Assembly (NCBI GenBank): GCA_000442015.1
Contig: KE561209.1
Coordinates: 124,001-188,000, forward strand
Source: Rozella allomycis CSF55
Lineage: Eukaryota
Direction of reading: 5' to 3'
Length of the DNA: 64,000 bases
Positions 5,781 through 37,590 of this stretch are shown one piece after another (position 1 is the first letter of the stretch; every line of letters begins with the position of its first letter). Below the pieces are notes generated by a model. That model did not search any database, was not told the DNA's origin, and saw only the letters and a program-made list of their open reading frames with translations. The position numbers and the translations under genes were made by a program.

Positions 5781-7497
5781 ATGACATTGAGAATTTTGGG
5801 TAATTGCGTTGATTCAAGAAAATACACCACTATTCGCCCGATATATAAAAGAGCAAATAACTTCAATGTCTTAAATAACAAACATTTAGATTTTTTTAAT
5901 TCTCTTTTGGAAAAAGAGGAGATTCAAACTAAAGATTTGGATTCTTACAATACCGACTGGATGAAAAAATATAAAGGCCAGTCAAAACTAGTTTTAAAGC
6001 CCAAAGAAGCATCAAAAATATCAGAAATTCTTCGTTATTGCAACATGGAAAAGTAGAATCGATAATCTTACTACTTTAGACTTGCCGTTGTTCCTCAAGG
6101 AGGAAACACTGGTCTTGTGGGCGGTTCAGTACCGGCATTCGACGAAATAATTCTATCGACCAAAAATATAAACAAAATTATTGCTTTTGATAAGACTAAT
6201 GGAGCAATAGTATGTGAAGCTGGTTGCATTCTTCAAACATTAGATGAATATGTCCAAGAAAACGGATTTATTGTCCCACTTGATTTAGGGGCGAAGGGTA
6301 TGGTAGTGCGAAATATATGATCTAGGAAGTTGCCATATAGGTGGTAATGTTTCCACTAATGCCGGTGGTTTACGCCTTATGAGATATGGTTCTCTGAAAG
6401 GTTCAGTTTTGGGGCTTGAAGCAGTAACGGTTTTGAATGTTCTCTAAAGATATTGGCTGATGGGGCCATTCTTTCAAATTTAAACACAATGAGAAAAGAC
6501 AACACGGGTAATGTCTTACAATAACAAAGTTATTGGCTATGATCTAAATCAACTTTTCATCGGTTCGGAAGGGACATTAGGGTTCATAACTAAAGTCTCG
6601 TTACTCTGTGTTCCTAAACCAAAAGTAAACTTACCTTCTGCATAATTATGGCACAAAATGTACTTTTGTTTGGTGTCAATAGCTATGAAAATGTTTTGCA
6701 AATGTTCAAGCTTACAAGAAGCATTTGTTCTGAAATTCTTTCGGGTGATTGTGATAATTGTGTTAATAGCAGCATTTGAGTTCTGGGATGAACATTCAAT
6801 GGAATTGACATTGAAAAACGCAAAACTGCATAGTCCATTGGCTGGACTACATAAGTTCTATGTACTCATTGAAACTTCTGGGTCTGATAGTGATCATGAT
6901 CAAAGCGTATGCTCTCTTATTTAAAATAGATATATATAGAAGCTTGATAAATTAATGAATGAAGGTTTTAGTAAAGAAATTGTACAAGATGGCATTATGG
7001 CACAGGATGTTAGCCAGGTAAAATTGGTATGAATCAAATTAAGATCAAAAATATATGGTCGTACAGAGAATTTATTCCGGAAGCCTGTTCCAGAGAAGGC
7101 TCAATGCTCAAATATGACATATCTTTACCTCAATCAAAATTGTATAGCATTGTTGAGTTAATCCGAGAAAAACTTGGAAAAAGTGTTTCTAATGTAATTG
7201 GATATGGACACATAGGTGATGGTAAAGTCAAATGAATGTTTACATAAGGCAATTTACATCTGAATATCTCATGCATGATTATTCTCCTGATTTGATTAGT
7301 ACAATCGAGCCCTTAGTTTATAATTATGTGGCAGAAAATGGAGGAAGTATTAGCGGCGAGCATGGCATTGGAATTATGAAAGTCAATTATCTACAATACG
7401 CAAAATCACCAAGCTCAATTAAATTGATGAAAAAATCTAAAGAATATGCTTGATCCCAATTCCCAATGGTATTTTAAATCCTTACAAAGTCTTTTGA
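5781..7497 (+). CDS. DLD2: D-2-hydroxyglutarate / D-lactate dehydrogenase (FAD-linked, DLD2-like), 9 introns, apparent C-terminal frameshifts
   Basis: [72 protein letters not shown]. Confidence 0.92.
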
Positions 7498-7667
7498 TTC
7501 AATAAATAATTGATATGAGCGTAGCCATTTTGAGTACTATTTCATGGGCATATTATAGCGTTCTCATCCAAGCCGATTTTTACTGTTAAATATAGCTATA
7601 TGTATTTCAAACTTGGAAGGTCTTGAGTAAAGCGGGCGCATTAGGTAAGTAGCTGATAAATATGATT

Positions 7668-8755
7668 TTATTGTAAAGACTTATAATAATACAACACCAC
7701 GAATTCTGAGGCAATTGATAAATGATCTGAACCGAACGTAGAATTTGGCAAACCAATCTCTCCTCCTTCAATATGTTCTATATGAGGTATATTTTGGACC
7801 GATAAAACCTGCAGAAACTGAGGATCATAAAAAATATAGTCGATTGTTTGTTTGAATGAAGGTGTATACACCGTATAACCTGGTTCACTCCGTAAAGCTG
7901 TAAAGTAAGCTGATTTAAGATTAAATGTATTACTAAGAGAATCTATTATACTTAATATATTCTCCATTGTGTTAAATCTTGTGTGTTCCATTGCATCATT
8001 AGAGTTCTCAATCCCTTTTGGCAGCGAAGATAAGGTTTCAGGTGAAATAATTAACGATTGAAGGTCATCCAAAGAAAGCTTTGCGCTAGTAAGGCATTTA
8101 TACAATGCTGAATCTGGTGTCATATTAAAATCTCCACAAACAATACATGGCGAAATAGAATACTCTTTTTTAACAATTTTTAAGCAGCGCATCCAATATT
8201 CTACCTGTTTCAACCGTATAAAATCCGCTAAAGGTCTCCAATAAAGATGTCCAGTTGAAACTAAAATAGAGTCCATGGTTTCCACATCTTGCAATACTAC
8301 GATAATCGCAATATTATTTGTTGTAGTGATTCCTTTTAAACATTCATCAAATAATACGTGTTTTTGATAAAGTAGCTTCAGCCTAAATGGATTTTAATGG
8401 TAGCATAAACATACTTTCTTCTATTGTAAAAAATAGCGCATCCATCCTTCAAAGGCTTTGACATGAAAACTCCATTAAAACTTTGCTTATTAAGCTCAGG
8501 TTCAAAAAAGTCATAGAAATGATCTACCTCCAAAAGCATTCAACATAAAATCAATACTTGTAGGCATATTATATCTGCATTGCACCGTTCTATTTCTTTC
8601 AGTAAATTGTTTTTCCTAAAACTCCATCGAAGAATACCCTTTTTGCAATATGGGAAGTTTTCTTTGTTAATAAGGCGTTGGGAAAGCACATTGAAACTTT
8701 GAATTTTTATGCTTCTCGTCATGGCTTCATATTTAGTGTTTTGAAAACTGGACAT
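7668..8755 (-). CDS. EEP-family deadenylase/phosphatase (CCR4/Angel/Nocturnin-like), 2 introns
   Basis: SFNVL, ADIICLQ|EVD, GDFN, TIDYIFY, GSDHLSI motifs. Confidence 0.88.
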
Positions 8756-8928
8756 TAACGTTTTCTTATAATTTAATCTCAGAAATTTAGTGACAAAATT
8801 CAATTCCTGCAAACCGAAATTTTACTTATACAGTAGATTTAAAAAGGATTCATTGGCTAGACTTTAAAAATAACTCTAACCTATTAGTTTGTGACAACCC
8901 CTTCCAAGCCACAAACTCAGAATCGTCC

Positions 8929-9927
8929 ATGCCCATTGATAGGACTCAGGAACTTCATAATTACAACAAGAGAGGAAATAGGAATTCTTATAAAAAATTC
9001 AGTCCAAATACCAGCGATCGATCCTTTGATATAGAGATGGGTGTAATCGGCGACAATAGCCAAGATTTGTTTTTCAAAGAAATAGAAGGAATTAGAGCAT
9101 CAATAACAAAAATCACAAGATATACTGATGATTTAAAACGATTGCACACCCAAGCTTTGACAACATTATACGCTGACGATGGTGCAAGAGCAAACAGGGA
9201 TATAGAAGAATTAACAATCCGAATAACAGAAATATCAAATTCAGTACGAAGGAAATTGAAAAAGATTGGCGCTGAAAATGAACAAATGGCCAATAATGTA
9301 TCAAAAGGAAATGCGAATTTAAGGATTCGTACAAATCAAGTAGCTCAGTTGTCAAAAAAGTTTATGGATGTCATGAGAAACTATCAGCAGGTTCAAACAG
9401 AAAACAAGCAAAAGCATATACAGCAACTTGAAAGACAATATAAAATCGTCAGGCCAGATGCAACACAGGAGGAGTTGGAAAAGCTTAGGGAACAACAAGG
9501 AAGTTCTTTAATGTCACAGCAAATATTTACTATCACTAATGTAGATGATGCACGAGAACTTTTAGATGACATGCAAGAAAGGCACAATGAGATTATGGTG
9601 CTAGAGAAATCCATGCTAGAGTTACATCAACTGTTTATGGATATCTCATTGTTAATTGATCAACAAGGAGACATGATAAACACCATTGAATCACAGGTTG
9701 AGCAAGCTACTGAATATACCTCTAATGCGGTCGTGCAACTGAAATCTGCTGTAGAACATCAAAAGAGTGTCAGAAAGAAGAAATGGTACCTCTTAATATT
9801 CTTCTTGATTATTTTAGCCATAGGTGGAGTGCTTCTATGGTTTTATGTAATCCAACCATTTTTGAATCAAAGGAATAGTCAATCTTCAAACATTAAAACA
9901 GGACAAAATACAATAGTTAACAACTGA
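8929..9927 (+). CDS. Plasma-membrane Qa-SNARE syntaxin (Sso1/syntaxin-1-like)
   Basis: Habc helices, SNARE motif ELHQLFMDISLLIDQQGDMINTIE, C-terminal TM. Confidence 0.92.
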   Translation: MPIDRTQELHNYNKRGNRNSYKKFSPNTSDRSFDIEMGVIGDNSQDLFFKEIEGIRASITKITRYTDDLKRLHTQALTTLYADDGARANRDIEELTIRITEISNSVRRKLKKIGAENEQMANNVSKGNANLRIRTNQVAQLSKKFMDVMRNYQQVQTENKQKHIQQLERQYKIVRPDATQEELEKLREQQGSSLMSQQIFTITNVDDARELLDDMQERHNEIMVLEKSMLELHQLFMDISLLIDQQGDMINTIESQVEQATEYTSNAVVQLKSAVEHQKSVRKKKWYLLIFFLIILAIGGVLLWFYVIQPFLNQRNSQSSNIKTGQNTIVNN

Positions 9928-9931
9928 TTGT

Positions 9932-10834
9932 TTATTTATGATTGTTTATTTGATAAAGGACTGTTTTTAAATATTTCTTTTTCAACCTTTTATATTTTTC
10001 TTTAATATCTTCATCATCCTTTTTAATGATATCATTTGCAACTGCATGGGACTCTATTATCTTCCCCATAACCCTCTGCCTTGTAGGGCTAACACTTTTT
10101 CTTTTATCCACAAGCCCTTCTTCAATTAATTCTATTCTCTCCTTTTCCCATTTCTCTTTATCGGCTGCTCTTGCTTTTTCTAGCGACAATCTTAAATCCT
10201 TTTCAGTTTTAACATTAATTTCACATTCTTTAATTTCATTTTGTAATTCTTCAATTTTTCTAGCCAACTGATGCTCATTTTCTTGCAACTTGCCAATGAC
10301 TAGACCATTCTCGTGAATTTGCTTCTTCAATCGTGAATTCTCCATTTTCAATTCCTCTATTTGTGTCTGATATTCAGTCTCAAATGAAGAAAATTTCTCA
10401 GCTGCTTCCATTTCGATTTTCCTCGCCAAATCTCTCTCTTGAACCAATTTGTTGAATAATTCACTTTGCAAAAGTTCTCTTTCAACCCATTTTGACTTTT
10501 CTTCTTCATGACAATTAGAAATGGATATTAGTTCTCTCTCCAGACTTTTTATGATCTCGTCTTTCTTAATGTCACTCTCATATATTTTCGGCGTATCGGC
10601 ACTTTGCAGACGATTCCTAAGCTTCTTAATTTAGTAAAAGTGAATTACCTCTTTAATTTCACTTTCATAGTAATCTCTTATTTCATTTTCCCTAGCAAGG
10701 AATTCATTGCGTTGTTCATCTAATAAACAGAGGTGTTGATTTTGGATAAATTGTATTGTTTTCTCATGACTTTCAGATATTTTTTTGATATGATTACAGA
10801 GCTCTAATATTCGATCTGTTTCGGTTTCATCCAT
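9932..10834 (-). CDS. Coiled-coil hypothetical protein, 1 intron
   Basis: Two E/K-rich ORFs joined by a GT-AG intron near 10626-10658. Confidence 0.65.
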
Positions 10835-11090
10835 TGTTTTGACTTTTTCAAAAATTTCAACGTCAAGTTAAGGCACGACAAAATCATAAAAAATACTTAA
10901 TCTGTAATCATTATCAAGCATAATATAATTATTTCGGTAATGTGACTTGTTAGATTATAAAAGGGACTAGATTCATACAAAAACCAATTGGAAAACTTCA
11001 TAACTTTATCGAATATATTTTAGAAATATGAAGATAGTTCTGTTCTTAGTGCATTACCACACATTAGGTAATTTAGTGCAACGACTGGTG

Positions 11091-11097
11091 ACCCCTG
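11091..11097 (+). promoter_or_regulatory. ACCCCTG motif upstream of the AIF start; representative of a recurrent start-proximal CCC motif
   Basis: Identical heptamer within 30 nt upstream of the Piezo, LPMO, subtilisin and DUG1 start codons. Confidence 0.65.
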
Positions 11098-11116
11098 TTC
11101 ATACTTGCTCAATACA

Positions 11117-13096
11117 ATGATGTTGAGATTGACCAGAATTGCTACATCGCGCGCAGCTACTTTCCGTCCCACTTGGATTCCCAAGAGAAATTTTATTATT
11201 GCTCCACCTAAAAACGAACATGTCTACAACATTGCATTATTTGTAATGGTAAACTGCACAACTATTTTATTATAGGGATTTGGATTGGCATATTTTGCTG
11301 GATCACGTAAATGAAACAAATAATATTTACTAAATAGTTAGCTTTGGGCCCCAATTAGAAGTTTTAGTGAATGCTCATCAAAAGGCAAAAGAACTTGAAA
11401 CGGAGGAAGCTGCGAAAAAAGAAGCCTTACAACTTGAATTAAACGATTCTTCTTCTTATTCGATTGATTCATCTTCTAATCAAGACCATGAATTATCATC
11501 AACACCTCTTGAATCTGATCATAGCCCATCCCCTATTGACGAGGCTGAAAGTTCGAGCAATGAGATTGAAAATAATATTCAAACGAAAATACCTCAAATT
11601 AGAACTACTTTTAGAGCGAAATATGTCCTTGTTGGAGGAGGTACGGCCGCTTACTCTGCGTATGAGACGATTAAGAAACATGAGCCAAATGCCGATGTAA
11701 TCCTACTTGAGTTTTATTATTAAGGTTCTTATTGTATCTAAAGAGGATCTCCCGCCCTACACACGCCCACCATTGTCAAAAGAACTTTGGTTTTCTGATG
11801 ATTCTCTTGCGGAATCTCTCCAATATAAAGACTGGAATGGAAAAAACAAAAAGTAAATCTCGCACAACTAAGTCTTAGCGTACTTTACAAGAGTAAGGCG
11901 GATTATGAAACGGAGGGCACCAAATTGATACTTGGGAGGGAGGCTGTAAAGATGCATCCTGACAGAAATCTCATTGAGTTAAACGATGGATCATACATTA
12001 TATACCAAAAGCTTCTTATTGCGACAGGAGGATCACCAAGAAATCCAGAGTTCCTGCAAAATCTATCACCAACAACGATGGAGAAGGTTAGTATGTACAG
12101 AGGGGTAACATGACTTTTGTGTGTCCAATAGTTAAATGATTATCAAAAAATTAGGAAACTTGTGAAAGAAGGCAAAGAGATCGCCATCATTGGCGGCGGA
12201 TTTCTTGGAAGTGAACTTTCTTGTGCTATTGCAAATGAGCGTAAAATATGAATTTCATATTAAAAGAACGCAAACTAAACGGCCCATCAAGGGTAACACA
12301 AATATACCCAGAGGAAGGAAACATGTCAAACATTTTCCCGAGATACTTGTCGAATTGGACGAAAAATCAGTTAGAAAAATGTAACAGTTAATATCAAGTC
12401 TTATTGATAGTTGGTGTGAATATCAAAAGTGAATGCTCTGTGAAAAAATTGGCGGTTGATGAGAATGAAGGAAAAGTGACAATTAAGACAAACAAAGAAG
12501 ACATCAAGGCTGATCATGTAATTGTAGCTGCAGGAATTGAGCCAAATGTTAGTTTGGGGGAATCTGGAAATTTAGAAATCGATGAAGTGAATGGAGGTAT
12601 CGTAGTTAACAAGGAGCTCTCGGCAACAAGCAATGTGTGGATAGCCGGGGATGTTTGTTCATATCATGATGTAGTTTTAGGAAGAAGAAGAGTCGAGCAT
12701 TATGAACATGCTGTTTATTCTGGGCAAGTAGCCGCCAAGAACATGATGGGATTCAAGGACGAATATACTCATCAGCCAATGTTTTGGAGTGATTTGGGTC
12801 CAGAAATAAGTTATGAAGCGGTGGGAACTCTTGATAGTAAAATGATGACTGTTTCTGTGTGGGCTAAAGAAACTGAAGGAGAAGAAAAATTTGACCGGGG
12901 TCTAGTATTCTATTTGAAGAATGATGTAATCACCGGATTGCTACTGTTTAATTTACCGAATAGGATATCGTTAGCTAGGAAAATCATTAAATCGAGAATG
13001 AATAGCAAAGATATTGAAAAGGTGGCGAACGCGTTTGAAATCCATGAGCCTAGAAATCCCAATGTGAAGACTGAAGAAATGGAAAGTAGCAATTGA
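11117..13096 (+). CDS. AIFM1: Mitochondrial apoptosis-inducing factor (AIFM1-like flavoprotein), 7 introns
   Basis: Targeting peptide plus [55 protein letters not shown]. Confidence 0.9.
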
Positions 13097-13138
13097 AGAA
13101 AAAGTTATTTAATAAAGTATATTTGAGTATAAATTAAT

Positions 13139-15881: not shown

Positions 15882-15994
15882 GCCTAAGACCAGGGTGTGA
15901 AAATGCAAAAGAGCAACATCCAATCTCACAAAATAAAAGGCTATTCAATTATTATTATGATAAAAACGATAAAATTTATTTAAATATTTTACAT

Positions 15995-16394: not shown

Positions 16395-16447
16395 TTCAGA
16401 TATTTTGGAATAATCAACAACGTTTTTTTTGAAATTTATTAAACAAT

Positions 16448-17487
16448 TTATACATCATCATTATTATTCATTAAATGTAGATATGCCGGCTGTCCAGTGC
16501 TTGATGGGAATGACAATCTTTGTTGGGATTCCATGGATTGGTTCATGTTCAGTAAATAAACCCCGCAAAATGTTACAAAAAATCCACAAAAAATCGAAAG
16601 CACTTTCACCGGGTCTCTCTCGTTGAATCCTTCAAATAAAAGAACCGATGCCAAGATAGTTGCTGTTGTAAAGAATACATAGTATATAGGAGTCACTACA
16701 GAAGTACTGAATATATCCAAAGCTTTGTTTAAATAAGTAATCTGAATCAAAATAAAAACTCCCACGGTAATAAGAATTATATACGTCGACACAAAAAGAA
16801 ATTGATTTTTTCCTTCAAAAGTTAGTTTTAGCGATATTCCCAGTGCTTTAGAAGACATCACCAACAAAGACCCAATAAGTGAGCATATGGAAATATATAC
16901 CAATGGAGTGCGCCGACCATACTTTACTGAAAGTTTTCTGATCGCATAGAAGCAATATGTGATACAACTTAGTGAATACAATAAAAAGCCTTAATTTCCA
17001 ACTATGAAAATATAAACCTGGTTTAAATGCTGCTTCTATTATCTCTTGGATTGAGCTAACTTGTTTCTCTTCAGGTGCATGAAGAATCTTAACTCTAGGC
17101 TTAAGAAAAATACATTACAATAATAACTGCACCTAGCAAACATAAAACACATCCTACTCTTCCGGCTTTGTCTAATCTTTCATGCAAGAAAGTTGTCGCA
17201 AGTAACGATGATATCAAAACCGACAGCCCCCCTAATGGTGTCACGAGAATAGCGGGTGCAAAAGTATAGGCTGCAAAATTTGCGAGCTCTCCAAAAACCA
17301 CTTGTGCCAGAAAATCCATACATTTACTTGTTAGTAAACCAATCCACCACATCCTGGATCGCAAGTATGCAAACCCATCACCATTGCCATCACTGGATAT
17401 CAGGCCTTTCTTTGTAATTATGAAGCTCACTCCTATAAAAAAACTAGAAGATACAGCTAATATTAAGCCTATGTATTTATCTTCCAT
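16448..17487 (-). CDS. NIPA-family magnesium transporter, 3 introns
   Basis: MEDKYIGLILAVSSS, GELANFAAYTFAPAILVTPLG, YLNKALDIFSTSVVTPIYYVFFTT. Confidence 0.95.
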
Positions 17488-17518
17488 TAAAGAAATTTGG
17501 GATTTATTTTTATCACTT

Positions 17519-18314
17519 TCAAACAATGAAAGCAAAGAGTATAAACAAAAATCCTCCAATGAAAGTAACTTAAACTACATAAAAGATATAAATTTACGAG
17601 TTTTTGTTGAAATCTTAGTAGCCAAAATCCGACCTCCAATAACCGCCAAAAATGTACATATTCCATGACCGAGCAATGTCCCAAATATAATTATAAGATA
17701 GCCCTTTTGAATAGTAAAAAAATCATTACTTGCGATGCGGCCATAGCGAATGTTGTAATTTGTGATCGGTCACCCCATTCCGCCATAATTGTCAAAGTAA
17801 AAACCTCCATGAATAATGAAGCTGCATCCCTAAACATGGTATTTTGAGGCGGCTTTTCACCTCCCTCGATTTTTGTCAGCATGTTAGTGGTGTCTTTCAT
17901 TTCCAATTCGTTTCTCACAGATTCCATTTCTTCCTGTGCTTCATTGTAGCTCATGTAATATGCCTCGTAGAGCATGTTAAAGCCGAATATAATAAAAGTA
18001 AATGTAGCGCACCATTTCACATACTTTTCTGATATCAAAGTCGGCAAAGTTGTGCCCAGTGCCACTGACAGTAAGGTCATTATTATTAAAGCGCTATATG
18101 ACGAGGCGAAAACCAAAAGCCTGGAATGTTTCATTGCCATTATCGCAGCAATGAAGAATGTTTTGTCTCCGATCTCAGAAACCATGATCATCAAAATGTT
18201 AGCGAAAAAAGCCTGCAATGATGAAGTGGACTTCTTTTCAATCAAAGAAACACTTTGAGACAGTACATTGGGGGTAAATAGAAAGTACACAAATATGGTT
18301 CCAAATTTCAACAT
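17519..18314 (-). CDS. GDT1: GDT1/TMEM165 (UPF0016) Ca2+/Mn2+ transporter, 2 introns
   Basis: Twin motifs SEIGDKTF and AEWGDRSQ. Confidence 0.93.
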
Positions 18315-18380
18315 TTTCTGAAATTTGAATGAGCACGATATTCAATTATTGCCCAATTGATGGCAGAAAATTTTCGGAAA

Positions 18381-23485: not shown

Positions 23486-26400
23486 TTAACTCCTTTTGAG
23501 TTTAGTCAAGGAAAATAGATTTTCCGGTGATCTAAATAGATTAATTAACTGCCTAAATATTGTTTCTTCCATTAAATGATCTTTAAACTCTCGAGCCAAA
23601 AGTAAATTCTACTATAACAAATTAAGAACATTTACTTCGCACATTTCCAATATGGGGTCAATGTTTGGAATGTCTTCGTACACAATTCTAAAAGACATTC
23701 CTGTGACGATCATTCTAAGAAATCGACCAAAAGTAAAAACAACGGCAACGTACAGACCAATAACACCATATGAACTAATGGCAGATATGGCGGCAATATT
23801 ATCAGAATAGACGAAAACAACAAATTTATCGTTTGTATTATTAAAGTTGCTTATTCGTTGATTAATTTCAAACCAAGTGACAGATTCTGATGTCTGCTTC
23901 AGTAGAGTATATGTATTTTTATTGGTACCTTGTGATGTTTGTGGAATTGATCTATTTTGAATGTTTTATTTGATTACTCTAGTTTGCCTGTTGGATATGA
24001 TCTTAATAAGAGTGGTAAAAGGGCAGGAATTTCAGTTTGGGCGTACGACTCTGATGAATTTAGCAAGTCAGCCAAAGAATTTAATTTTGAAGTAATATTT
24101 GCAGTCGTTGAACCAGAAGAAGAAACAATCGTAGCTGAAGGATGCAAGACAGACCAATCAGCGACCAATGGTGAAGTTCTATTGTTCTTTGCCAAATCAC
24201 GCAATGTATCGATTAATTGAACTTTACTCTTGGGATTTATTTCCCAATTGCTGCTTGAAAACTAGTTGATGATGTATGGAAATGATTACTGAACTAAAGG
24301 AGACTTTTTGAATATTATTTTTTCCAGCGAAAGAGGGAAGATTAAAATTTTCTTTTAAAAACTTGTATTCCATGTCATTTATCGCTTCAATTCCAGTTTC
24401 ATTAGTAGTATCTGTGGCTTGGTCAAAAAGAGGCTCAAAGCCGCCAATTCTCAACGTGACTTTTAATGAAGAAATTGGGTTAGGTTGTGTTGTGCCTGGA
24501 ATAGATAGGAAAAGCAATGGAAACCAAATAAGAAAAATCAACCCGACAATCATCAATCCACAAAGGAGCCACTTGTTTGCTTTTGGCTGAATAGTTCCAA
24601 ACTTGCGAGGATAATTTTTGATGGCTGTTAGACTGCATTTAACATTGAAAACATTAACGTAAATATCTTCAAACTTTAGCCAATTGTAAAAGTCTAGACA
24701 AGTGTCTGTTACTGCCCAATCAATTATTGATCTAATTTCAAAGATGAAAGGAATTGATCTATAAACAATATTTGCAATACGATTAATTAGATTGTATTGG
24801 TTGATGATAAAAAAGGAACTCTTAAACTTTGGATACCCATGTTTTAGCTGGAGTGCGGCAAAGTACCAATAAAGACATTTAAAAAAGTACCATATCTGCA
24901 ATTGAATTAAATTTTTGATGTATTGCCTATTGTTAAGTTTGCTATATAAATTACTTGTTTGAGATTGTTAAAGCAAAAAATACCCATAGATGAAAAGAAA
25001 CTACAGAGAATATTTGAAGAATGAATTTGAACAACCAATTTTTGGCGCCATAAATACCCCTGTCGATAATAATTAAACAAAAATTAATCAATTCAATTGC
25101 AACAAATAGAGGAGGTACAGTATTTTGAGAAAATATCTAATGAGAGAAAGATGAAAAGGTTACATTGTTTAGAAATTGTAAATCTTGGGCAGTCCCTTTT
25201 TCACCCGAGAAGGAATCCCAGAAAAAGACTGTTAGAGTAAAGCAAATGAAATCACAAATGAACATTGGAAGGTAGAAATCTTTACCGAATGTTTCATTTA
25301 AATGTTCGTTAAATTTAGATTTCAGAGTTTCCCATAGGGAAGGTTTTCTGGGGACATCGAGTGGTTGATGGTTTAAAGAGAAACTAGAGATTGGAGAGCT
25401 TAAAGTTTGAGGAGAGCTAGTTGATTCGTAAGGAGAATCAATTCCTTTTCTTTTGGTGTTGTAGTTGCTCATTTCATAATTAAAGGGTCCATCGTCAACA
25501 TTTGATGCATTTGCATTCCCCAATTCAACATCGGTTTGTCTATTAAGCAATTCAACATCGTTTTGTCTATTATAGACTTCGACATCACCTTGTCTATTAC
25601 CTTGTTCTTCAACGTTGTGCTTTTCAACTCCTTTTAAATCTTTGAAATCCCATAACCCAGTTCTTCTCATGATTGAGCGTTGAATGACAAGAGAAAACAA
25701 AACAAGAATTTCAACGTTGCTTGAAGAAGAAAAGGAAGAACAAACTTTGAATAAACCAAATATTCTTGACCAAGAAAACTCTACCTTTTCTTCACAGTTA
25801 AAGGAAGAATCAATGAAAGGAAATTGAAAAATGTATCTAAAGAGAATCATGTAAACGGAATAAACAAGTAAAGAATGCCAAAAGTAATGATTGGGACGAG
25901 GTCTGCTTAGTAGACCAAAAGTTAAGATTAAAACCATTGGAATTGTTGTGATTACAGAGCCGCGTTCAATTTGAAGAAGAAAAAGAAAAAAGAAGCAAAT
26001 TAAATCAAATCTTGCTAAAATTAAGAAATAAATTGAATAAAGGAATCTTTTAAAAATATTTTTGTTTGAATATTTCTGAAATGGTTCATTGCATATTTTT
26101 CTATACAAATGAGACCAAGAAAATATTTTAATTATCAAACCTTTCAAAAAACTCACAATCACTCTTTCAGTAGCCAAGGTATCTCTCTGGTTAGTTTCTT
26201 TCTCAATGATATCTTCATTATCATCTCTTTCACCGCTAACGTTCTCTTTAACGTTCTTTTCATGAAGGCTCATTTCATCCTTTTCTCTTTTAAGGCCCAT
26301 TTCATCCTTGTCTCTTTCACCCCATTCCCTATCACCTTCGTTGAATGTAGGACTGTTTAATTCACTTTCAGATATTTCATTGAATAATTCTTTATCATTT

Positions 26401-29400
26401 TTAGAAAGATTTTCAGTAGCTTTTTCATAAACATTTTCTAAATGCAAAGAAATTTGATTTTCAGTTTTTTCATGAATATTTTGAGTGAAATTTAAATCTT
26501 TATCAACAGAAGAATTAGAAGAAAAATGAGAAGGTGAATCAAAGGAAGAATTAGGAAAATTGCTTTTGGTGTCTTTACTCTTTATGTCTTCACTCTTCCC
26601 TTGCGTACTTTTCCCTTCCTTACTGCCTTCATTTTCACCCCCTTCACCATTTTCACCCCCTTCACCCTCTTCCTCACAATTGTTGAATAAATCAATCCAA
26701 TCTTCAATTCCTTCACATTTGTTTTTGTGAATAACCATTTTAGAATAAAGATTTATAATTTGCTTTTCATAATTTATAAGATTTTGTTTCAATTCAATTA
26801 ATTGTTCAATTTTAAACAATTCAGATCTATTTGAAGCTTCCATTAATTCTTGCTTAGATTTCTTAATACAATTTCTCATTTCAGGTAAAAATGTTAAATT
26901 TGAATGAATTAGAATCAAAAAGAATAAAAAAATCATTCCTAAATAATCAAAATCAAAAATATTTTCATTTTGCAATTTATAAAACCCAAAAATTGTAAAA
27001 AAATTAACTTTGCAATTTCTGAAATTTACACATGGGGAATCACCATTGTTAAATATAAAATAGACTTGAAATCCTAAAATAACCCAAAATAGAATCAATA
27101 TATAAATTAAAATAAATCTAAAATTGTTATTCTTATTTAAAAACAATCGTTCTCCAAGAATAATCAAGTAGAGTGAAAATGAGAATAAACCAAGAGAAAT
27201 CAAATTGATTCTAAATATAGATGTAAAACAACTTGTTATCAAAATTAACCAAAAAAAGTTTCTCAAAACAAATGTAGAAAGTTTAGATGAAGCAGTTGAA
27301 GTGGCAATGGAGAGATTTGTTACTGATCGAGTAGAGAGATTTGTTAATGATCGAGTAGAAACATTTAATGATAAATTTATTACTTTGAATGTTAAAATGT
27401 AATAAATCAACATTTCAATTCCAATAGAAACATTAATGGAATCTTCATTCTTAAATCCAAATAAACCGCTAATTTCTTTACTAAACGTTATTGGAATTAA
27501 ATCATTTAAATAATTAATTTGTGATGCATAATAAACGCTTGTAAGAATTCCAAATACTATTGATTGACCTTTAAGATTAAATCTTTTGAATATAAAAATG
27601 CTAACAATTAAAAGAAAATAAAAACTTGTCAAATTTTGTCTAGCAAATCCTCCAAACAAAATTAAAGTAATCAAAATCTCCATTTTAAAATATAAAATTC
27701 CATTGAAAAGACAAGTTAAAACATTTGCTACTTTATCCACTTTTTCATCTTTAATTTTATCATTTTTAATTATTGAATGTAATAGAATAATGAATCCCAA
27801 TAAAATTTCAATAATAAAATACTCTGAAAGTGGAATATTCAAATTCTGAAATTTCGTTAATCCAATTTCATTTAAAATTTTATTTTCTGGAAAACTTTTT
27901 AATTGATAAATAATTTGACTGGCCATATTAATCTCTCCAAACAAAAGAAACATGAAATAGTTATTCTGAAATTTACTAAAAATGAAGAATAAAATTAGCA
28001 AGGCGAAATTAATTAAAGAAATAGATCTAGTAATTAACAAATAAACAAGAATAAAAATTATTAATCTTGAAAATTTAAATATTACAAATTTCAATGATTC
28101 CCAAGCGATTGCCATATTAGATTTAGACACAATTTGAGAATCATTTTTAGAATCATTTTTATCCATTTGAATATCTTTTTCACTTTTTGTGTCTTCCATT
28201 TCAATCGCTTTCTTTTCAGTGGAGTCTCTTATTACTACTAAACCATTCATTTCTTTTTCTCCTACAGATCTTCCTTCTACAGATCTTCCTTCTACTCTTC
28301 CTTCTAAAGATCTTCTTTCTACACTTTTTTCTTCCGCTTCTTTTTTTCTCATAATTCTGAAATTTAAAACACTCAAGATTAATAAAATAACATGCGGCAA
28401 TAAATATGAAAATAATTTTCCAGATGCATCTCTAAGCCCCAGATCTAAGATTAGATCTTCATTCAATTCATTTTTAATTTTTTCTTTAAAATACTTAAAT
28501 TGATAAAGATAAAGAAATGCAATAACAGAAGATGAATAAATAACAGAAATAGTCCAACTGTACAAAATAACTTTTCTAAATTGAAAATACAAACAATTAA
28601 TCCAAAAGAATAAAAATATTAAATATCCAAAACTTAACAAATTTGCTTCCTTCATAAAACATCCACAAAGTAAAAAACTTATCATTGTGACAATCCACGT
28701 GTATTTCTTTAAAATTGAATCTTTAAATTCTTTCCATTTCTTCAATTTTTCATTTCTTTTATTCTTCAAAAAGTAAAATGTTTGCAATTGAATTGTTGAC
28801 AATCCTAAAATAACCAAATACAATGTCATTCCTTCCCATAACCTTTCATACTTTGATAATCCAATCACACTCGAAATTTCAAAATTATCTTTCACAAAAC
28901 TAAACTGCCAAATATATTCTGTTAAAATAACAAATTCTGTATAAATAACTAAAACTGGCCAAAATACTTTCACTGTCCATGGAAAGGTCATAAAAATCAA
29001 AAACAATATCAAATAAATCGCATTAATCACAGTCACCTTTTCTAAACTACAAAGATAAATCAAACAAAGTGAAATTATATAAGCATAGGACAACAAAATA
29101 GAAGAACCAACTTTAATCAAATAAAATCCACTCTTCTTCACCCTCTCAATCCAAGACATCTACCATTATATTAAAGTTTTATTATTACCCTTTTATTTTC
29201 TATTGATTCTTTCTTTTCTTCTCTCAAATCTTTCCATTCATAATTAGTCAGCAAAAGCAATCCCAATGTCAACACTTTAACGCCAATTTCTAAAATTGGT
29301 ATTTTATCTCCAATCACTCCAATCTCTTTAACAATTCTATTATCATCTTTAAAATTAAACACGCAAAACAAATATTCCACAAACACAACCAAACTCATCC

Positions 29401-30529
29401 AAAATATTACATATGAAACTGTAGCCTTGTGAAACGATCTCTCAAGTAAAATAATCAATAATGCCCAAACTAAAATAGGTATAGAAACAAAGCTAGGGAA
29501 TTGAACAGCCCAAAAGATTGAAATACACGAAGATATTATCCACGAATTCTTCTTTATAACCCCAAAATTTATTCCTTCAAATACAATCTTCAAATCTCCC
29601 TTATCATACTTGAATACTTTAGACATTTGCTTAATCCCATGACTTCTACATCTATAATACAAATACTTTGCAATAAATATAAATTCACCTAAAATCAATG
29701 ATCCACTTAAAATGTCTTCCCAATTATTCAATTTAACAAAAAAGTACTCATTAGAAAACTCAAATATTTGACGCAAATACAAAATCAATAAAAATATTAT
29801 AGAATAAAAAAACTTAATGTTTTGAAATAGATTAAAAAATGACTTTGTGTATTTGCCAAATCCAATCATTAGCATCTCATACATGAAAATAACAAAAAAT
29901 ATCACAAAAGGAACCCTCTTACTAACAACAGATCCCACACCTGATAATATAATCGATAACAGCAATGTTATTCTACGAGTACGTCCAAATCTTGATGTTA
30001 TCAAATCTTCTGTTGGTTCAATAATCGCCTGTCCTGATTCACTTGCACTCTGATAATTTCGTCCCATACTCCAATCATTATTCAACGGACGAGTTTGCAT
30101 TTTAAAGGCATTAAAGAAAATAGCAACCACACTGCATACACACAGAATGACATCAGTGCCCACACTAACAAATAGCTCAAAATGATCTGTAGAGTTGGTC
30201 ATCCCAAACAATTTAGACCACTCTGGAAGGCGAAAATCAAATGCAAATGTTCTCGTTGTTTGAACAGCCGCATGGACAATACTCATCGAAATACTCAATA
30301 AAGCTACACTATATAAAATCAACTTTCTTAGCCATCCTATATTTCTATCATAAATTATTTACTGAAAGATGGTAGAAAAAATATCAAACTAGCAATAAAT
30401 AGAACAAAATAAATAAAAGAGACAATGTTAAACCTAACTACAGCACCTATAAATTATATATTGATTAATCTTACTGTACAATAAAATAATAGGCCATATA
30501 CTCTCAACTAAACGTCGAGTAGTTAACAT
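23486..30529 (-). CDS. PIEZO: Piezo-family mechanosensitive channel, ~6 introns
   Basis: ~7 kb multi-TM gene; ALQLKHGYP, PFIFEIRSIIDW, WLKFEDIY, LIWFPLLFLS, YGVIGLYVAVVFTFGRFLR, LFRSPE. Confidence 0.92.
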
Positions 30530-31464
30530 TAAAATAAAAATAGTTGAAACAGTTAACAGGGGTTTCAAATCAAAGCTAAAATAGTAAAAAATACATCATT
30601 TCTATATTCAAGAGTTTTTAATGATTTAATCGATGTTTTCCCTTTCCTCTACTGTGCACAAGGCTGACACGGAGGGTTTTCGACTTTTCGTCTTATATAA
30701 GAATATGTGTCGCTCCAAGCGCTTATAGTCATAAATTGGATAGTAATATTAAAGACAAATGAATAAAAACAGATGTCGAATAATAATGGATTATCTCCGA
30801 TTGTTTATTGAATATCGCCTCGGAATTTATATTCTATAAATAGTACCAGAATAGAGATCCGTTCAGGAATAAATTTAAGAGATCTCAGATCCTGGCTCAA
30901 CTTTGGTTATGAGTTTAAGGCGTAAATATTAGTTCATCTGAGATACCTCACATGGTCCATGGTCCGTGGAGACAATATTTACTTACCGTATAGTGACTAC
31001 CGGTAGGTGGATTTGACCAAGCCACAATTTTTATAACCGAAATCGTTTAAATATCGAAAACGTAGAAAAAGCATTTATTTCTATTAATCAATGCCTTTTA
31101 GACAGCATGGTGCCATGGTCTCACGAGACTACATTGGAAATAATGATTCATTGAGCGAAGAAGAGTAGCGCCCACTAAATAAATAAATTACCAAAGTTAC
31201 TTACTGAAAATGCTTCATCTTGGCATGTAGCCTTGTACATATTTGGCCAGTGGCCACGTAGTCACGGACCCCGGTATGAATATTTTTCTGTCTCTTTTCA
31301 TGGCATTTTTATTATCGTTACCTTTAAAGAATTTGAATATCTGTGATACTAAAAGCGGAGTTGCCATGGTAATGGGTTGTCATTTGTCAATACTATAATT
31401 GAACCTTCCATATTGCCAATAATGAGTAGTATTTTTTATTATGAATGCTTATACGTTGTTGTCN

Positions 31465-32515
31465 GGATTTGAATAAAAATGTTCTAAAAGAGAATATTTC
31501 AATCCTTTAACAAAATTTAAAATTGATAAATCAAAAAGTGAAAAATGATCCAAAAGAAGTTTCAAAGATTTAAACCCCAGTCTAAATCTCATTTCACTCT
31601 CAACAAAAAACTATTTTTAATCTTCTTCATTTCTTACTTTTAAAATTAATTCATCCAAACATTTCTCTGGTTGCTCCAATTTAAATAATTCTAATTGCAA
31701 AAATGAACAACTTTGTCTCGTTAATACTTGATGAAACATTTCCATCGACGTCGCCATTCCAAATATCAACGTTAAATTCAACTTCTTTTGATGAATGCTA
31801 TTATTTCTTCCTTTAATTCTTACCTCAACAAACAAATCAATGCCTCCAACACTTTCGCATCACAACCTTCAAAGTCTGGAATCATCAATATCAATTTTCT
31901 CTCTTTATTTGTTTCATACCAATCATTCAACACTGAAATATCATATGCCAATCTCTTTCTATTAGAATTTATCAACACCCCTTCAATTTCTTCTTCATCA
32001 ATCAAATCTCCACTCTTTGTAAATTTCGTAATTATAGATTTCACTGTTTGTTTCAAATTATTCACCTGATCCAATATCACTATCCTAGACTTCTTTTCAT
32101 TCCTCGATAATTCCATCCTCAATCTTTGGAATAACGATACTCTATTCGTTGAATGCATCCCTATCTTCACTCAAAAATTTATCTACCAACAAACAACAAT
32201 GCAGTAGGAATGTCACCCATAAAATCAACCTGGTCTTGAAACACAAACTCTGCCATTTCATTAAACACCCTTTGATGAACCTTTTCAGTTACTTCCTATT
32301 ATACCAAACTAAAATAAAATATACATCAACTATATTCTCAAGTTCTGACAATGCTTCCTGGTACTCCTTCATCCTCTCATCACCCTCGTCAGGCAACAGT
32401 TTTACAAAATGCTCAGTCATCGTCTTTGGCTTTTTACATTTCGGTTGCACTATATAACACGCCTATCTCATACAAATACAACTAGTACCTGAGAAACAGA
32501 ATCAAATTTTGTCAT
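31465..32515 (-). CDS. ORC3: Origin recognition complex subunit 3, 3'-truncated at assembly N (31464)
   Basis: LMIPDFEGCDAKVLEALI, LIFGMATS, LKYSLLEHFYSNP running into the N. Confidence 0.8.
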
Positions 32516-32543
32516 CAACCAGTTACGAAATTTCAAAGTCAAA

Positions 32544-34001
32544 ATGCGCACCAGAAGTAAATTCCATTCTACAAAATATTCAGGATCAATACTACCATCA
32601 GTATCAACAGAAACACAGGATCTAGCTGCTAAAGATGAAGCCATTTCATCTCCCAGAAAGAAACAAAAAAGAACCCCAAAAATTGATAAACCCGATCACC
32701 ATAAAAACATGGCTATTGTAGAAAAGATTAACCAAGATCAAGAAAACATAAACCCAAACATCTCACGCGAAGCATTGGACAAGCTGGCTGATGCAAAGTC
32801 TATTTTCAGGCGCTCAGCCGACAACACCATAGATTTCTATGTCGGCCGCCAGAAAGAACGAGATACCATACAAGAGTTTATAAACAACATTCAGAGCAAA
32901 AACAAAAATGGATCGCTGTACATTGCTGGGTGTCCCGGTTGCGGAAAGACAGCATTGATGGCACAAATCTTGGAAAAATCAGTAAGAAAATGCATCAAAT
33001 GGTTAATAGAAAATTGTACATACTTTTTTAAATTGCATGACTGTGGAAGAACCTAGACAGATATTTTCAAAATTGGTCGCTAAAGTTTTTGGTAAAGAAA
33101 CTACGCTCAAGGATTCTTTTGAATGCTTTAAAAGCAATATTGATGCTTCAAAGAAACCAATGTAATTGTTTTTGTGTTTATTAATAGATTATTGGTGCTG
33201 GATGAAATCGATCAATTGTTAACAGCCAATGGTGACATTTTGTACAAGTTATTTGAAATACCTTTTAGCAGCAACAATAAGATATCCATTATCGGGATTG
33301 CAAATTCTTTGGACCTTACAGATAGATTTTTACCAAGATTAAAGTTAAAGGGCCTGGAACCAAAAATACTTCATTTTCAATCCTACAAAATTAATGAGAT
33401 TTCCGATATCTTGAAAAAAAGATTAGAATTTGTTAAAGATCGGATTAAAGTGCAGGATATCGCTTTGGAACTTTGTAGTCGCAAAGTTGTTGCGATTGGC
33501 GATGTTCGGAAGGGTTTAGATTTTATATTACAAGTATGAAATAACATGAAAGCTTAATAGGCTATTGAAAAGGCTGAAATAAAAGGAAAGGAGAGTGTGG
33601 AAGTTACTGTGGCACACATGGTCCAAGTGCTGAATAATTCAATTCAACCGAATTCAAGCGTGTTCAAGATTAAATCTCTAAATATCCAGTGCAAGTGTGT
33701 TCTTGTAGCTTTTTATAGACTACAGAATAAACATATCACTGTTGAAAACGTAATTAACTTTCAATTCATTCTTTAGGTTTTAAAAGAATACGAAATAGTT
33801 TGTAAACAAATTGGAACAAGTGGTCTCTCTCGATCAGAATTCTTGGATATATGTTCAACACTTGAAACTACTGGAATTTGGTCGTTTCAAACTAAAGGCT
33901 CGCAGTTCCAAAAGAGAATCCAATTGCATGTGTCAACCGATGATATCAAAGTTGCCTGTCAAAAAGAAAAAATATTAGAAAGTTTATTTCTGAATGAATA
34001 A
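32544..34001 (+). CDS. CDC6: Cell division control protein 6, 4 introns
   Basis: SLYIAGCPGCGKT Walker A, LVLDEIDQL Walker B, IGIANSLDLTDRFLPRL, GDVRKGLD. Confidence 0.93.
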
Positions 34002-34065
34002 AATGTATAGAATATTAATCGCCTTTTTGTTTTTGCCAATTCAAATCATGTAACACTTTATAAAT

Positions 34066-34482
34066 CTAAACAGAAATTTTTGGAACTTTGCCTCGAGAGT
34101 ACATTAAACTTGCCCTTTTTCTTCGCTCTTCCTAATCATCAACCATTAATTGAATTATTACCATTTCCTTAATTCTCTCATCAAAATCAATCGACTTGTC
34201 GAATTGAATATACCTTATCCATGGTCCTTGAATAACCATTGATTCATAAACTTTTTCCTCCCAGTCAACATCATTGACTTTTTTAATCCAAGTAGCATTT
34301 TCAACAACCATTCTGACTATACATTAAATATTGCTTTACGTCTGAGATTTGTCAATAAACACCAAAGTTCCGTAAACTATTTGTTCTCTGTTTAGCTCTA
34401 CATACACTTTTTCACCCAAAATACTCGAAAAGAGATATGTCAAGTTTTTGGCTTGGAAAGACAGTTCCAACTTTGTCGCCAT
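34066..34482 (-). CDS. Sm-like protein, most similar in pattern to LSm10 (absent from ORF track), 2 introns
   Basis: Spliced product MATKLELSFQAKNLTYLFSSILGEKVYVELNREQIVYGTLVFIDKSQTMVVENATW...SMVIQGPWIRYIQF has Sm1 and Sm2 motifs. Confidence 0.7.
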
Positions 34483-34497
34483 TTTGTAAAATTCACA

Positions 34498-35513
34498 ATG
34501 AAGGACCATTTTATTGCAGGCGGTACTTCTGCTTTTATAACTTGTTTATCATTGCAACCATTAGATGTATATAAAACCAGACTGCAAGAGATTCCCACAA
34601 ATATTAAAATATCGTAAAGAATTCGTGTATAATCAATAGGCATCTTCAATTTATCAAATCTATTATAAGGAAAGAAGGAGTTGGAGTATTTTGGAGAGGG
34701 ACGGTGCCAACGTTCATAAGGAATGTACCGGGAGTGTCATGCTACTTTGGATTGATACATCAAATTACATCAAATATTCTTCGGAAGGCTCAAAACGGAT
34801 ATGTACCACAATCATTGGTGACAAATGTTACGGGAAAGCAAAACCAATTTGAATTGACAACTCTCGGCAACGCGCTTGTTGGTAGCGTTGCAAGATGCAT
34901 TGCTGGCCTCGTCTTTATGCCAGTAACAATTCTTAAAGTAAAATACGAAGTATGATTTTGCGAAAGTTATTTTAGAGTGAATCCTTTGAGATAAAGCCAA
35001 TGTCAAAAATAATTCGAGACATTCATCAAAAGTATGGAGTTAAAGGTAATCTTTAGTTTTTTTTAGTTTTCAGGATTCTTTCGAGGGTTTGCAGTGACAA
35101 TGTTTCGTGATGCCCCTTTTGCCGGATTGTATTATTCCAGTTATCAACAATTCAAAAAGACGATGACTTGCACTACCCTGCCCATATTTATCCAAAACAC
35201 TTCCAGTGGTAATTAGTCATTCATTTTCTAATGAGCAATCATTGCAGCTTTTGTGGCGACAATAATAACACAACCATTCGACATTGTAAAAACTAGACTT
35301 CAGTTATACCCCGATCGATATAAGTCTTCTTATTCTACTTTTAAATCGATAATAACAGTAATTAAGATGATAATGAATTAATTGTAGCAAAATGGGGTAA
35401 GGGGTCTTTTTAGAGGCGCGGGCCCGAGAATACTGCGAAAAACATTATCGACCTCTATGACTTGGATTTTTTACGAACATATTTTAGCTTTGAGTAGACA
35501 AATAAATAGATAG
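34498..35513 (+). CDS. HEM25: Mitochondrial carrier, SLC25A38/Hem25 glycine-transporter-like, 5 introns
   Basis: LQPLDVYKTRLQ, RNVPGV, PVTILKVKYE, RDAPFAGLY, QPFDIVKTRLQ, PRILRK. Confidence 0.85.
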
Positions 35514-35812
35514 ACTTGTTGATGATAAATTTGTGATCATATGTATTTGGAAAGTATTTGTCCCTATTGCCGCTCCGAACTTGAAGTTTTTCATTTGAAC
35601 CATGATAAGTGCATAGTTATGTGTCCAAATATATCTGTAAATACGTATGTATATGAATAGCAGTGTCAATTTCCCTTAAACGAGCGCTTTTTGAAGCTCT
35701 TGGTATTCCAAAGTGTGGAGTTAAACAATCTCGGGGAATTAATTAGTACAGCCTACTCAAATTGGTATTATGCAGACAAAGCATACCATTCGAATCGCAA
35801 TAAATAAGGGCT

Positions 35813-36103
35813 TTATTTTCCTCCTTTGTATCCATACTTCGACGTACTCCATTTTCCTTTTCCTTTTACTTCAGGTGCACATTTCTGAATAACGGAAGAG
35901 TATGATTTAAAACTACAGCTGGTTTGTGTTCTTGGGTCTGGGTTTTGAGAATAACATCCTTGGTGGTAAAAGAATCTCATTTTACGCCCATCCCGAACCA
36001 CAACGTTTTCGCCCTTGTGAATAATTTGCTTACATTCTCTGCAAGAATGTCCCATTCTATTTGCTGATCCGGTAGATATAGTCCAATACGAATTATTAGA
36101 CAT
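35813..36103 (-). CDS. Small PARP-type zinc-finger-like protein
   Basis: SCRECKQIIHKGE...FFYHQGCY (C-x2-C...H-x2-C). Confidence 0.6.
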   Translation of the reverse strand: MSNNSYWTISTGSANRMGHSCRECKQIIHKGENVVVRDGRKMRFFYHQGCYSQNPDPRTQTSCSFKSYSSVIQKCAPEVKGKGKWSTSKYGYKGGK

Positions 36104-36272
36104 TTATATTAGGTTGTTAAGTTGTAGTGGCCAAAAATAGACCAGCCCTTAAAGCTAAACACGCCACTATTGGAATTCGGACCAATCTTTTTGTAATGCA
36201 AGAAGCATTCATTATCAATCAAATTATAACATCCAAAAATATAATCAATTAATATAATGATTTTTTTATTAA

Positions 36273-36827
36273 TTAAACATGAACAATGTCTGTGAGACCA
36301 ATGAATCTTTGCGGATCGGAAGAATAAATGGTGGAAGAACCAGGCATATTGTAAATGGGGAGGTTCGGTCCGTTAAAACCAGAACCATTGCCACCTACGA
36401 TTGTCACATCAGCACAATTCATGTAGTATTCTGGTTGTCCTGATAACACTGGAACCCATGACCATGCGAAAACAGCATTTCCCGATGGAGCATTTTGAGG
36501 AATCATGACTTGATAATTATGATTGATAGGGCATGACTTGTCAGTAGACGAAATGACCTTGAAAGTATGACCTCCATCGTAGGAGAGGGAAAATAAGCAA
36601 CCGCCACCACCGTGGGGAGCACCTCCAGATATGACGACTTCAATTAGTGAGCCAGCTGTAAGGGTTGTTGTCGAGCCTCCTGCGTGTCTTCCCTGGCAAA
36701 GTTCTTTGGCGGGTGAATTATCTGTGCCTTGACGAGGGACGGGGACAGTCATGAGCATATGAGAAGTGGCAAGAGATAAGCATGCAAGTGAAACCAAGGA
36801 GGAAGTGAACAATTTGGAGAAAATCAT
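36273..36827 (-). CDS. Secreted lytic polysaccharide monooxygenase, AA11-like
   Basis: Signal peptide then His1 (HMLMTVPVPR); APHGGGGCLFSLSYD; FAWSW..GQPEYYMNCADV. Confidence 0.85.
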   Translation of the reverse strand: MIFSKLFTSSLVSLACLSLATSHMLMTVPVPRQGTDNSPAKELCQGRHAGGSTTTLTAGSLIEVVISGGAPHGGGGCLFSLSYDGGHTFKVISSTDKSCPINHNYQVMIPQNAPSGNAVFAWSWVPVLSGQPEYYMNCADVTIVGGNGSGFNGPNLPIYNMPGSSTIYSSDPQRFIGLTDIVHV

Positions 36828-36955
36828 TTTACAGGGGTCTGAGTGCGATCGAGTGGCTTATATACCCCGCTTGACCCTGTGAACCTGAGCGATAAGGGCA
36901 AAGAAATGCTATCGATAAGTCATGCATAGCGCATTCTTTCTATCCTTGGAAACCC

Positions 36956-37590
36956 ATGGCGTTGGCATCACGTAATGAAAATGTTTTGATCATAAATTGC
37001 ACGCCTCTTAACGGCTCTTTCCTAGAGAGAAGGTCAATCTCACTGCAGGAAAATGACTCTATTTTAGTTGGGCGATTTTCTGAAGGTAATAATGTAAAGG
37101 AGAAAATTGACTCTCTTTTGTTTGCCTCGCCTGTAGTCAGCCGCAACCATGCAATTGTAAAGAATGCTAAAGGAAAGGTATGCATATAATAATGAATTAA
37201 AACTTGATTGTCTTAATGGATACGAATAGTTCAGGAGGAACATTTGTTAATGGAAAAAGGATTAATGCAAATGAAGAAGTTGAGATCAATGATGGGGAAA
37301 AGATTCAATTTGGAACTACTCATAAGACGCCTAATGGAAGTAATTTTCTTGAAGATTCTATTAGTAGTTGTAATACCGAGTATTCAATTGCAAATAAAGA
37401 TACAGAATCCATACCAAGAAGAAGCGTACAAGTAATCAATTTAAAATATTTAACCTTTAGTGACATCAGCAAAGATCCTGTGGTTCAAGCTGCTGTCGAG
37501 AATGAGTTCAACAATATCTGGAATACTTTGAGCATGTCCATTCCAGATCCCATTGAATTATTGAGCAAATATAAACTGAAAAACGTGTAA
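36956..37590 (+). CDS. FHA-domain protein, 3 introns (first apparently GT-TG)
   Basis: ILVGR, SPVVSRNHA, DTNSSGGTFVNG, DGEKIQFG. Confidence 0.85.

Follow-up and report, generated by a model that had tools for sequence, protein, structure and literature searches.

Putative UG 3′ splice sites as sole acceptors in ultra-short introns of Rozella allomycis

The AG dinucleotide at the 3′ end of introns is among the most invariant signals of eukaryotic gene expression. A stretch of 64,000 nucleotides (nt) from the genome of Rozella allomycis CSF55 (assembly GCA_000442015.1, contig KE561209.1, positions 124,001 to 188,000 of the forward strand) raises the question whether this rule holds without exception in Rozella, a cryptomycotan parasite of the water mould Allomyces. 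This whole stretch is referred to below as the window, and all positions are given in its numbering. An original prediction, made by reconstructing introns by eye, had proposed that four tiny introns in unrelated genes of the window end in TG instead of AG. All four were recovered in the sequence as described: each has a GTA donor and a TG 3′ end, and they measure 28, 26, 27, and 29 nt. The analysis presented here indicates that they probably contain genuine UG 3′ splice sites, which serve as the sole acceptors in ultra-short U2-type introns of R. allomycis. That the RNA is cut at UG, and by which mechanism, we infer from the DNA and from homology.

The window has a G+C content of 34% and consists of tightly packed genes with very many tiny introns. 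The standard genetic code yields open reading frames of up to 1340 codons, and the idea of reassigned stop codons was dropped on this ground. Internal eliminated sequences of ciliates were also considered as the identity of the tiny inserts and were rejected, as the TA boundaries of such elements are not matched and the DNA comes from Rozella. A gene finder was written for the window, which scores codons by log-odds, treats intron lengths explicitly, and uses weight matrices for donors and acceptors that were trained on the window itself. The catalogue of canonical introns was taken from the genes of adequate score in its AG-only mode; the entries are predictions of a simple gene finder that carries a length prior and are not derived from RNA. 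The catalogue comprises 111 AG introns, 93 of them 26–29 nt long and two of 23 nt or less. Their donors are GTA (107) and GTG (4), and their acceptors TAG (64), AAG (33), CAG (9), and GAG (5). No GC–AG intron is found among the 111, and a GC donor was never chosen in the window even when it was allowed. The number 111 is an underestimate, and the actual count is nearer to the roughly 140 introns of the original prediction, because introns of a mitochondrial carrier gene beyond position 35056 were missed. This gene (34498–35500, plus strand) was cut by the gene finder at 35056, and inspection by eye added three more canonical introns of 28, 27 (with a GAG acceptor), and 30 nt. A hidden non-canonical intron in the carrier gene was ruled out, as every intron in it reads GT–AG by eye. 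A comparative study (PMC8476143) gives a density of 2.5 introns per kilobase (kb) for Rozella, taken from the public annotation.

Two of the four TG-ending introns, site 1 (6508–6535, plus strand; 28 nt, GTAATG...TTATTG) and site 2 (6625–6650, plus strand; 26 nt, GTAAAC...ATTATG), lie in a gene for DLD2/D-2-hydroxyglutarate dehydrogenase (D2HGDH). Site 3 (8531–8557, minus strand; 27 nt, GTATTG...CTTTTG) interrupts a gene encoding an EEP nuclease of the angel/CCR4/nocturnin-like type, and site 4 (37178–37206, plus strand; 29 nt, GTATGC...AACTTG) a small gene with an FHA domain. There is no internal AG in the introns of sites 2 and 4. The 3′ dinucleotide is TG in all four cases, which sets them apart from the usual U2-type intron at this position. 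The donor is of U2 type, with GTA in all four as in 107 of the 111 predicted canonical introns. The length of 26–29 nt is the mode of the predicted AG introns, and the composition agrees with these as well. The bases at position −3 are T, A, T, and T at sites 1–4, to be compared with the prevalence of TAG and AAG among the canonical acceptors. The donor, acceptor-context, and length scores of the TG introns fall between the 26th and 48th percentile of the 111 canonical introns. U12-type introns have the extended donor consensus RTATCCTT and AT–AC or GT–AG ends. The donors GTAATG, GTAAAC, GTATTG, and GTATGC do not fit this consensus, and the four introns were not assigned to the U12 type. The pattern GTA...TG at a spacing of 26–29 nt occurs 375 times by chance in the window. 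The pattern alone therefore carries no information, and the signal lies in its coincidence with breaks in conserved reading frames. Length histograms of GTA...NNG in the window show a peak for AG at 25–29 nt and cannot reveal a TG class of 3%. An in-frame TG alternative exists in seven of the 111 canonical introns, and in the single case checked by eye (eIF5, 37821–37848) the AG end is favoured.

The nuclease gene (7668–8755, minus strand) is intact apart from the TG intron of site 3. Removal of this intron up to its TG end joins the exons as ADIICLQ|EVDHF. The corresponding segment of nocturnin (6mal_A) reads L74 Q75 E76 V77 D78; the last residue of exon 1 aligns with Q75 and the first of exon 2 with E76, with the downstream frame aligning as (L)EVDHFYDFF with nocturnin L74-Q75-E76-V77-D78-H79. 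The continuity of Q and E is obtained by the TG end only. An alternative GT–AG intron of 30 nt (8528–8557, minus strand) is in frame and removes the Glu of LQEVD, which we take to be the catalytic, metal-binding residue of the family. The public models of the nuclease (206 residues in each of two assemblies) begin inside the TG intron in another frame, with MPTSIDF(M/I)LNAFGG, and omit the exons flanking it, including the conserved Glu. The 28-mer upstream of site 3 gave no exact match in a metagenome scan.

The DLD2 gene (5781–7497, plus strand) contains about nine tiny introns in our model, two of which end in TG. The translation of this model was aligned with the public Rozella model P0003 (EPZ31581.1) and five homologs. 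Its 72-residue exon at 6081–6296 is 100% identical to P0003. At site 1, the TG end restores the invariant RKDNTG|YDL and leaves no gap against four of the five homologs, the fifth (P0073) having a deletion of its own. The public models use an in-frame GT–AG intron of 22 nt here (6508–6529, plus strand), through which P0003 carries Val-Ile inserted into RKDNTGYDL (DNT-VI-GYDL). At site 2, the TG end is likewise gap-free against four of the five homologs, while P0016 carries an insertion of 12 residues at this place. It gives the only gap-free alignment, and the fit is defined to within one residue. The sole frame-compatible AG at site 2 produces an intron of 86 nt with the loss of 20 conserved residues. 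This form is used by the public models P0003 and P0127, which thereby skip the conserved first 20 residues of the exon 6651–6744 (plus strand). Relative to the homologs, the DLD2 gene shows three frame breaks at 7271–7462 (plus strand), with tblastn high-scoring segment pairs in frames 1, 3, and 2: one base is missing near 7272–7279, one extra base is present in or beside an A run, and the 7-nt sequence tcccaat is duplicated in tandem.

Two canonical introns of the same gene are also treated differently in the public models. The models EPZ31581.1 and RKP21855.1 skip the residues SCHIG through a 43-nt AG intron in place of the 28-nt intron at 6298–6325. The intron at 6745–6772 (plus strand) has the tandem acceptors TAG (25 nt) and CAG (28 nt); the homologs (ILSAFEF) favour the 28-nt form, and the public model takes the 25-nt form, which adds one extra Ala. 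In metagenomes, the best relative of the 72-residue exon reached 68% identity, and no close relative of Rozella was found among the 80 loci kept.

The FHA-domain gene (36956–37590, plus strand) consists of two exons of 74 and 127 codons, which are joined only by the TG intron of site 4. Residues 53–73 of exon 1 match positions 10–30 of the Pfam FHA profile and residues 2–36 of exon 2 match positions 34–67. As the profile runs on across the junction, the two halves belong together. No frame-compatible AG is present within 100 nt. Profile position 32 is unmatched, so that one extra residue is tolerated at the junction, and the in-frame ends AA (37200) and AC (37203) come into consideration beside TG. 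The claim that the conserved motifs are restored only by TG thus holds exactly at sites 1 and 3 and has to be softened at the other two. Judged by the alignments, TG is the strict solution at sites 1 and 3, the best fit at site 2, and one possibility among three at site 4. The further claim that two of the introns offer no usable AG was borne out, site 2 having only the 86-nt alternative and site 4 none within 100 nt.

The possible demand for other non-canonical junctions was assessed by rerunning the gene finder with a high cost for a new gene start and with one further dinucleotide allowed per run, either a non-AG acceptor (15 runs) or a non-GT donor (15 runs). Only two loci, 6625 (site 2) and 37178 (site 4), demanded a non-AG acceptor. 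The remaining uses of decoys fall on boundaries between neighbouring genes, as confirmed by eye for 17546–17597, 16422–16453, and 55037–55114, or on one DLD2 frameshift locus (7202–7262). A non-GT donor was demanded at no locus of the window in the 15 donor runs, and a CG or GG acceptor was required nowhere in it. These runs are blind to sites 1 and 3, where in-frame AG alternatives exist; they locate loci without an AG solution and do not fix the exact acceptor, because moving an end by 3 nt in frame hardly changes the score. Apart from their TG introns, the nuclease and FHA genes are intact, and all exons downstream of the TG sites are open and conserved. An exact look-up in other assemblies of open reading frames that read through the TG ends found none of six, including a control frame of 450 residues, and is hence uninformative. 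The original prediction had supposed that the Rozella spliceosome needs only the terminal G. This part was not upheld: without any CG or GG acceptor needed in the window, position −2 seems to admit A and U alone.

A second, single-cell assembly of the same strain (locus tags ROZALSC1DRAFT) was compared by means of its protein models only. These models share the exon structure of the reference models and are translated from different DNA. The nuclease models of the two assemblies differ at two of 206 residues (M8I and T184M), one of these changes lying inside the TG intron, and the single-cell sequence is therefore no copy of the reference. The base at position −2 of site 3 (8532) is the third base of the Phe codon TTT (8534–8532), and this Phe (NAFGG) is encoded in both assemblies, P0121 being the single-cell model. 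Since A at this position would encode Leu, the base is T or C and not A. By this comparison of protein models, an A-to-T miscall at site 3 is excluded by an independent assembly. Such a miscall, which the original prediction had wanted excluded, is thus ruled out at this one site. The codon at site 1 is uninformative in the second assembly, since ATT and ATA both encode Ile, and sites 2 and 4 lie inside annotated introns, outside any model. The single-cell model of the FHA gene, P0129, translates exon 2 out of frame.

The DLD2 model P0127 differs from P0003 by six scattered replacements in 424 comparable residues. From residue 425, P0127 reads NLKNML (LMKNLKNML) where P0003 reads KSKEYA, which is the frame predicted for one fewer base. 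On the evidence of these two models, the +1 break of the reference DLD2 sequence is a draft error or an allele. The warning that the draft contains visible errors was thus justified as regards insertions and deletions, with three frame breaks in DLD2, one of which is missing from the second assembly. The window sequence also holds a single N at 31464 and another at 63497. The differences between the two assemblies of the same strain suggest heterozygosity, polymorphism in the culture, or amplification errors.

It had also been proposed that the 3′ splice site is chosen largely by distance. This is supported by the 93 of 111 introns within 26–29 nt and by skipped internal AGs, which would give introns of at least 18 nt and are found in 33 of 102 predicted introns of 24–31 nt. 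Some of the skipped AGs lie only 2–8 nt upstream of the used site and are out of frame. Both observations, however, come from predictions of a model with a length prior; the in-frame cases of skipped AG are partly circular for this reason, whereas the out-of-frame cases are not. An enriched branch motif at a fixed position was not detected in 101 predicted introns, where the sole features are an excess of A at −4 to −8 and a T or A at −3. Within the limits of the model, the narrow lengths and the skipped AGs fit a selection by distance over a selection of the first AG.

We propose that Rozella introns may carry little signal beyond the GUA donor, an A/U-rich body, and (U/A)AG. The 3′ site would be picked within a narrow distance window and not as the first AG, and a molecular ruler measured from the 5′ splice site or from the branch would set the 3′ end. 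The catalytic centre would keep its need for the terminal G, which is paired with the 5′ G, and would tolerate a U where A is the rule at −2, a position paired with the branch adenosine in yeast. A factor that ensures fidelity in the second step (Prp18, Slu7, or the α-finger of Prp8), or U2AF35, might have been lost or have diverged and so have brought about this relaxation. No splicing factor is found among the genes of the 64-kb window. We lean slightly towards this proposal in its full form, in which about 3% of Rozella introns (4 of approximately 115–140 in the window) would be GU–UG introns constitutively spliced at UG, including two without any AG, with the length of 26–29 nt set by the ruler and position −2 relaxed to A or U.

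TG acceptors as such have precedents. In humans, TG serves as a 3′ splice site in 36 genes. There it is a minor alternative to an AG no more than 28 nt away and in no case the only acceptor, and about 0.01% of the candidate motifs are used (PMC2374985). These TG–AG tandem sites (Szafranski et al. 2007, PMC2374985) resemble the Rozella sites in the GT...TG form of the intron, the use of the major spliceosome, and a preference at −3 like that of AG sites. In Rozella, an AG lies 6 nt upstream at site 1 and 3 nt downstream at site 3, and at sites 2 and 4 the next AG is found 32 and 23 nt downstream. The functional AG within 28 nt that characterizes the human tandem sites has no counterpart at sites 2 and 4, which are without a frame-compatible AG in that range. 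Unlike the human sites, the TG form in Rozella is the only one to yield the conserved protein, would account for approximately 3% of the introns at lengths of 26–29 nt, and includes two introns without AG. Yeast lacking Prp18 uses BG sites (B being C, G, or U) genome-wide (PMC10711555), and the spliceosome can thus carry out ligation at UG under weakened proofreading or docking. That case concerns low-level alternative use of several non-AG classes in a mutant, whereas in Rozella it would be the wild-type state, with UG as the only non-AG class seen. Transcript-supported GT–TG junctions have been reported for Ganoderma lingzhi, 22 in number or 0.024%, together with 1.85% of GC–AG (PMC11590231), compared with 4 GT–TG introns of approximately 115–140 and no GC–AG among the 111 predicted introns in Rozella. 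In tunicates, most introns escape GT/AG at both ends, which has been linked to a divergent U2AF (PMC13326754). A lineage-specific loosening would be common to both, but 96–97% of the Rozella introns are GT–AG and −2 alone varies. In the P complex of yeast, G(−1) pairs with the 5′ G, and A(−2) pairs Hoogsteen-to-Hoogsteen with the branch adenosine (bioRxiv 10.1101/212811). Pairings of this kind are the structural explanation given for the invariance of AG. Given these structural data and the results on Prp18, a lineage-specific relaxation at −2 is mechanistically conceivable.

The original prediction knew of no description of TG acceptors for this lineage. We found no publication on splice-site usage or tiny introns of Rozella in a literature search that did not extend to the genome paper and its supplements, but TG acceptors in general are not new in view of the human genes. 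What would be new is their role as sole and constitutive acceptors in ultra-short introns.

Several observations weigh against UG acceptors in Rozella. The sample consists of four introns from one 64-kb window, the junctions rest on homology, and the intron catalogue was obtained with a simple gene finder. T at −2 is independently confirmed at one of the four sites. Site 4 also admits the ends AC and AA, and site 2 other non-AG ends within one residue. Two of the four sites lie in DLD2, a gene with three frame breaks that could be decaying, though one of the breaks is missing from the second assembly. In yeast, U at position −2 of the 3′ splice site leads to a strong defect in exon ligation (bioRxiv 10.1101/212811), and in human AG>TG mutants the TG is not used for splicing (PMC2374985).

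The clustering in DLD2 and the poor or absent use of UG as a sole acceptor in yeast and human (10.1101/212811; PMC2374985) would be expected if the T's were real and UG were not used, that is, if the four sites were splice-site mutations in dead or dying genes or in genes that yield altered, AG-only proteins. Such proteins would contain the Val-Ile insertion at site 1 and lack the Glu at site 3, where in-frame AG alternatives exist, while sites 2 and 4 would lead to intron retention and truncated products. Allelic variation may moreover be high, as six of 424 DLD2 residues differ between the assemblies. This explanation would, however, have to account for four non-canonical junctions that all carry the identical change of A to T at −2. 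Neither a donor lesion, nor one at −1, nor any other non-AG lesion was found in the window, and random decay or base error is disfavoured because either would also strike donors, position −1, and other substitutions. The nuclease and FHA genes are intact otherwise, with open and conserved exons behind the TG sites, and site 3 has T or C in both assemblies. The AG form at site 3 lacks a catalytic residue in an otherwise preserved catalytic domain, and the DLD2 break missing from the second assembly looks less like decay than like a draft error or an allele. We therefore regard splice-site mutation as rather unlikely.

Base errors in the draft, with AG at these positions in the true genome, would agree with the two single N's and the three DLD2 frame breaks, one of them missing from the second assembly, and independent sequence is available for site 3 only. 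At this site, though, T or C is found in the independently assembled genome. The visible errors are insertions and deletions and not substitutions, and approximately 45 kb of predicted coding sequence shows a single cluster of frame breaks, while four A-to-T errors at −2 of approximately 115–140 introns would imply an error rate of several percent per base. Draft error is accordingly a very improbable source of the four TG ends. The unmatched position 32 of the FHA profile and the in-frame ends AA and AC leave room for removal of the introns at another non-AG end (AC or AA at site 4, one codon off at site 2), or for a process that does not involve the major spliceosome, with TG partly a coincidence. 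At sites 1 and 3, invariant motifs define the end to the nucleotide, and it is TG in both; the TG end at site 2 gives the only gap-free alignment, and the donors are unlike the U12 consensus. This makes a different end or process quite improbable. Splicing at TG would be the simplest way for the three conserved genes to work.

If UG acceptors are genuine, Rozella would be a wild-type organism in which UG is the only acceptor in a few percent of introns, and thus a natural experiment on the AG rule, with a bearing also on the way in which ultra-short introns are measured. The gene models of Rozella would then be wrong in several hundred cases, and the lineage would offer a natural system for AG-independent exon ligation. 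The public models, which assume AG, are damaged at all four sites, with an insertion into a motif, a deletion of 20 residues, missing nuclease exons, and an FHA exon out of frame. Comparative genomics and counts of intron evolution inherit such errors, because Rozella serves as the standard outgroup for both Microsporidia and the early fungi.

The gene content of the window was characterized by Pfam searches that covered 30 of the 42 gene predictions with a score of at least 15, each represented by its longest exons, and families were matched in 23 of these 30. The matches include hexokinase, MBOAT, syntaxin, AIF, importin-beta, NIPA, GDT1, GPI2, Piezo, and ORC3, as well as subtilase, PIGO/PIGG, DEAD-box helicase, SCO1, RPC5, Nup84/107, M20 peptidase, MFS transporter, and PheRS. 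The Piezo match belongs to a very large gene (23612–30529, minus strand) with 2242 predicted residues and an exon of 1332 codons, which matches Piezo transmembrane units. A homolog of a mechanosensitive channel in a reduced intracellular parasite is worth attention.

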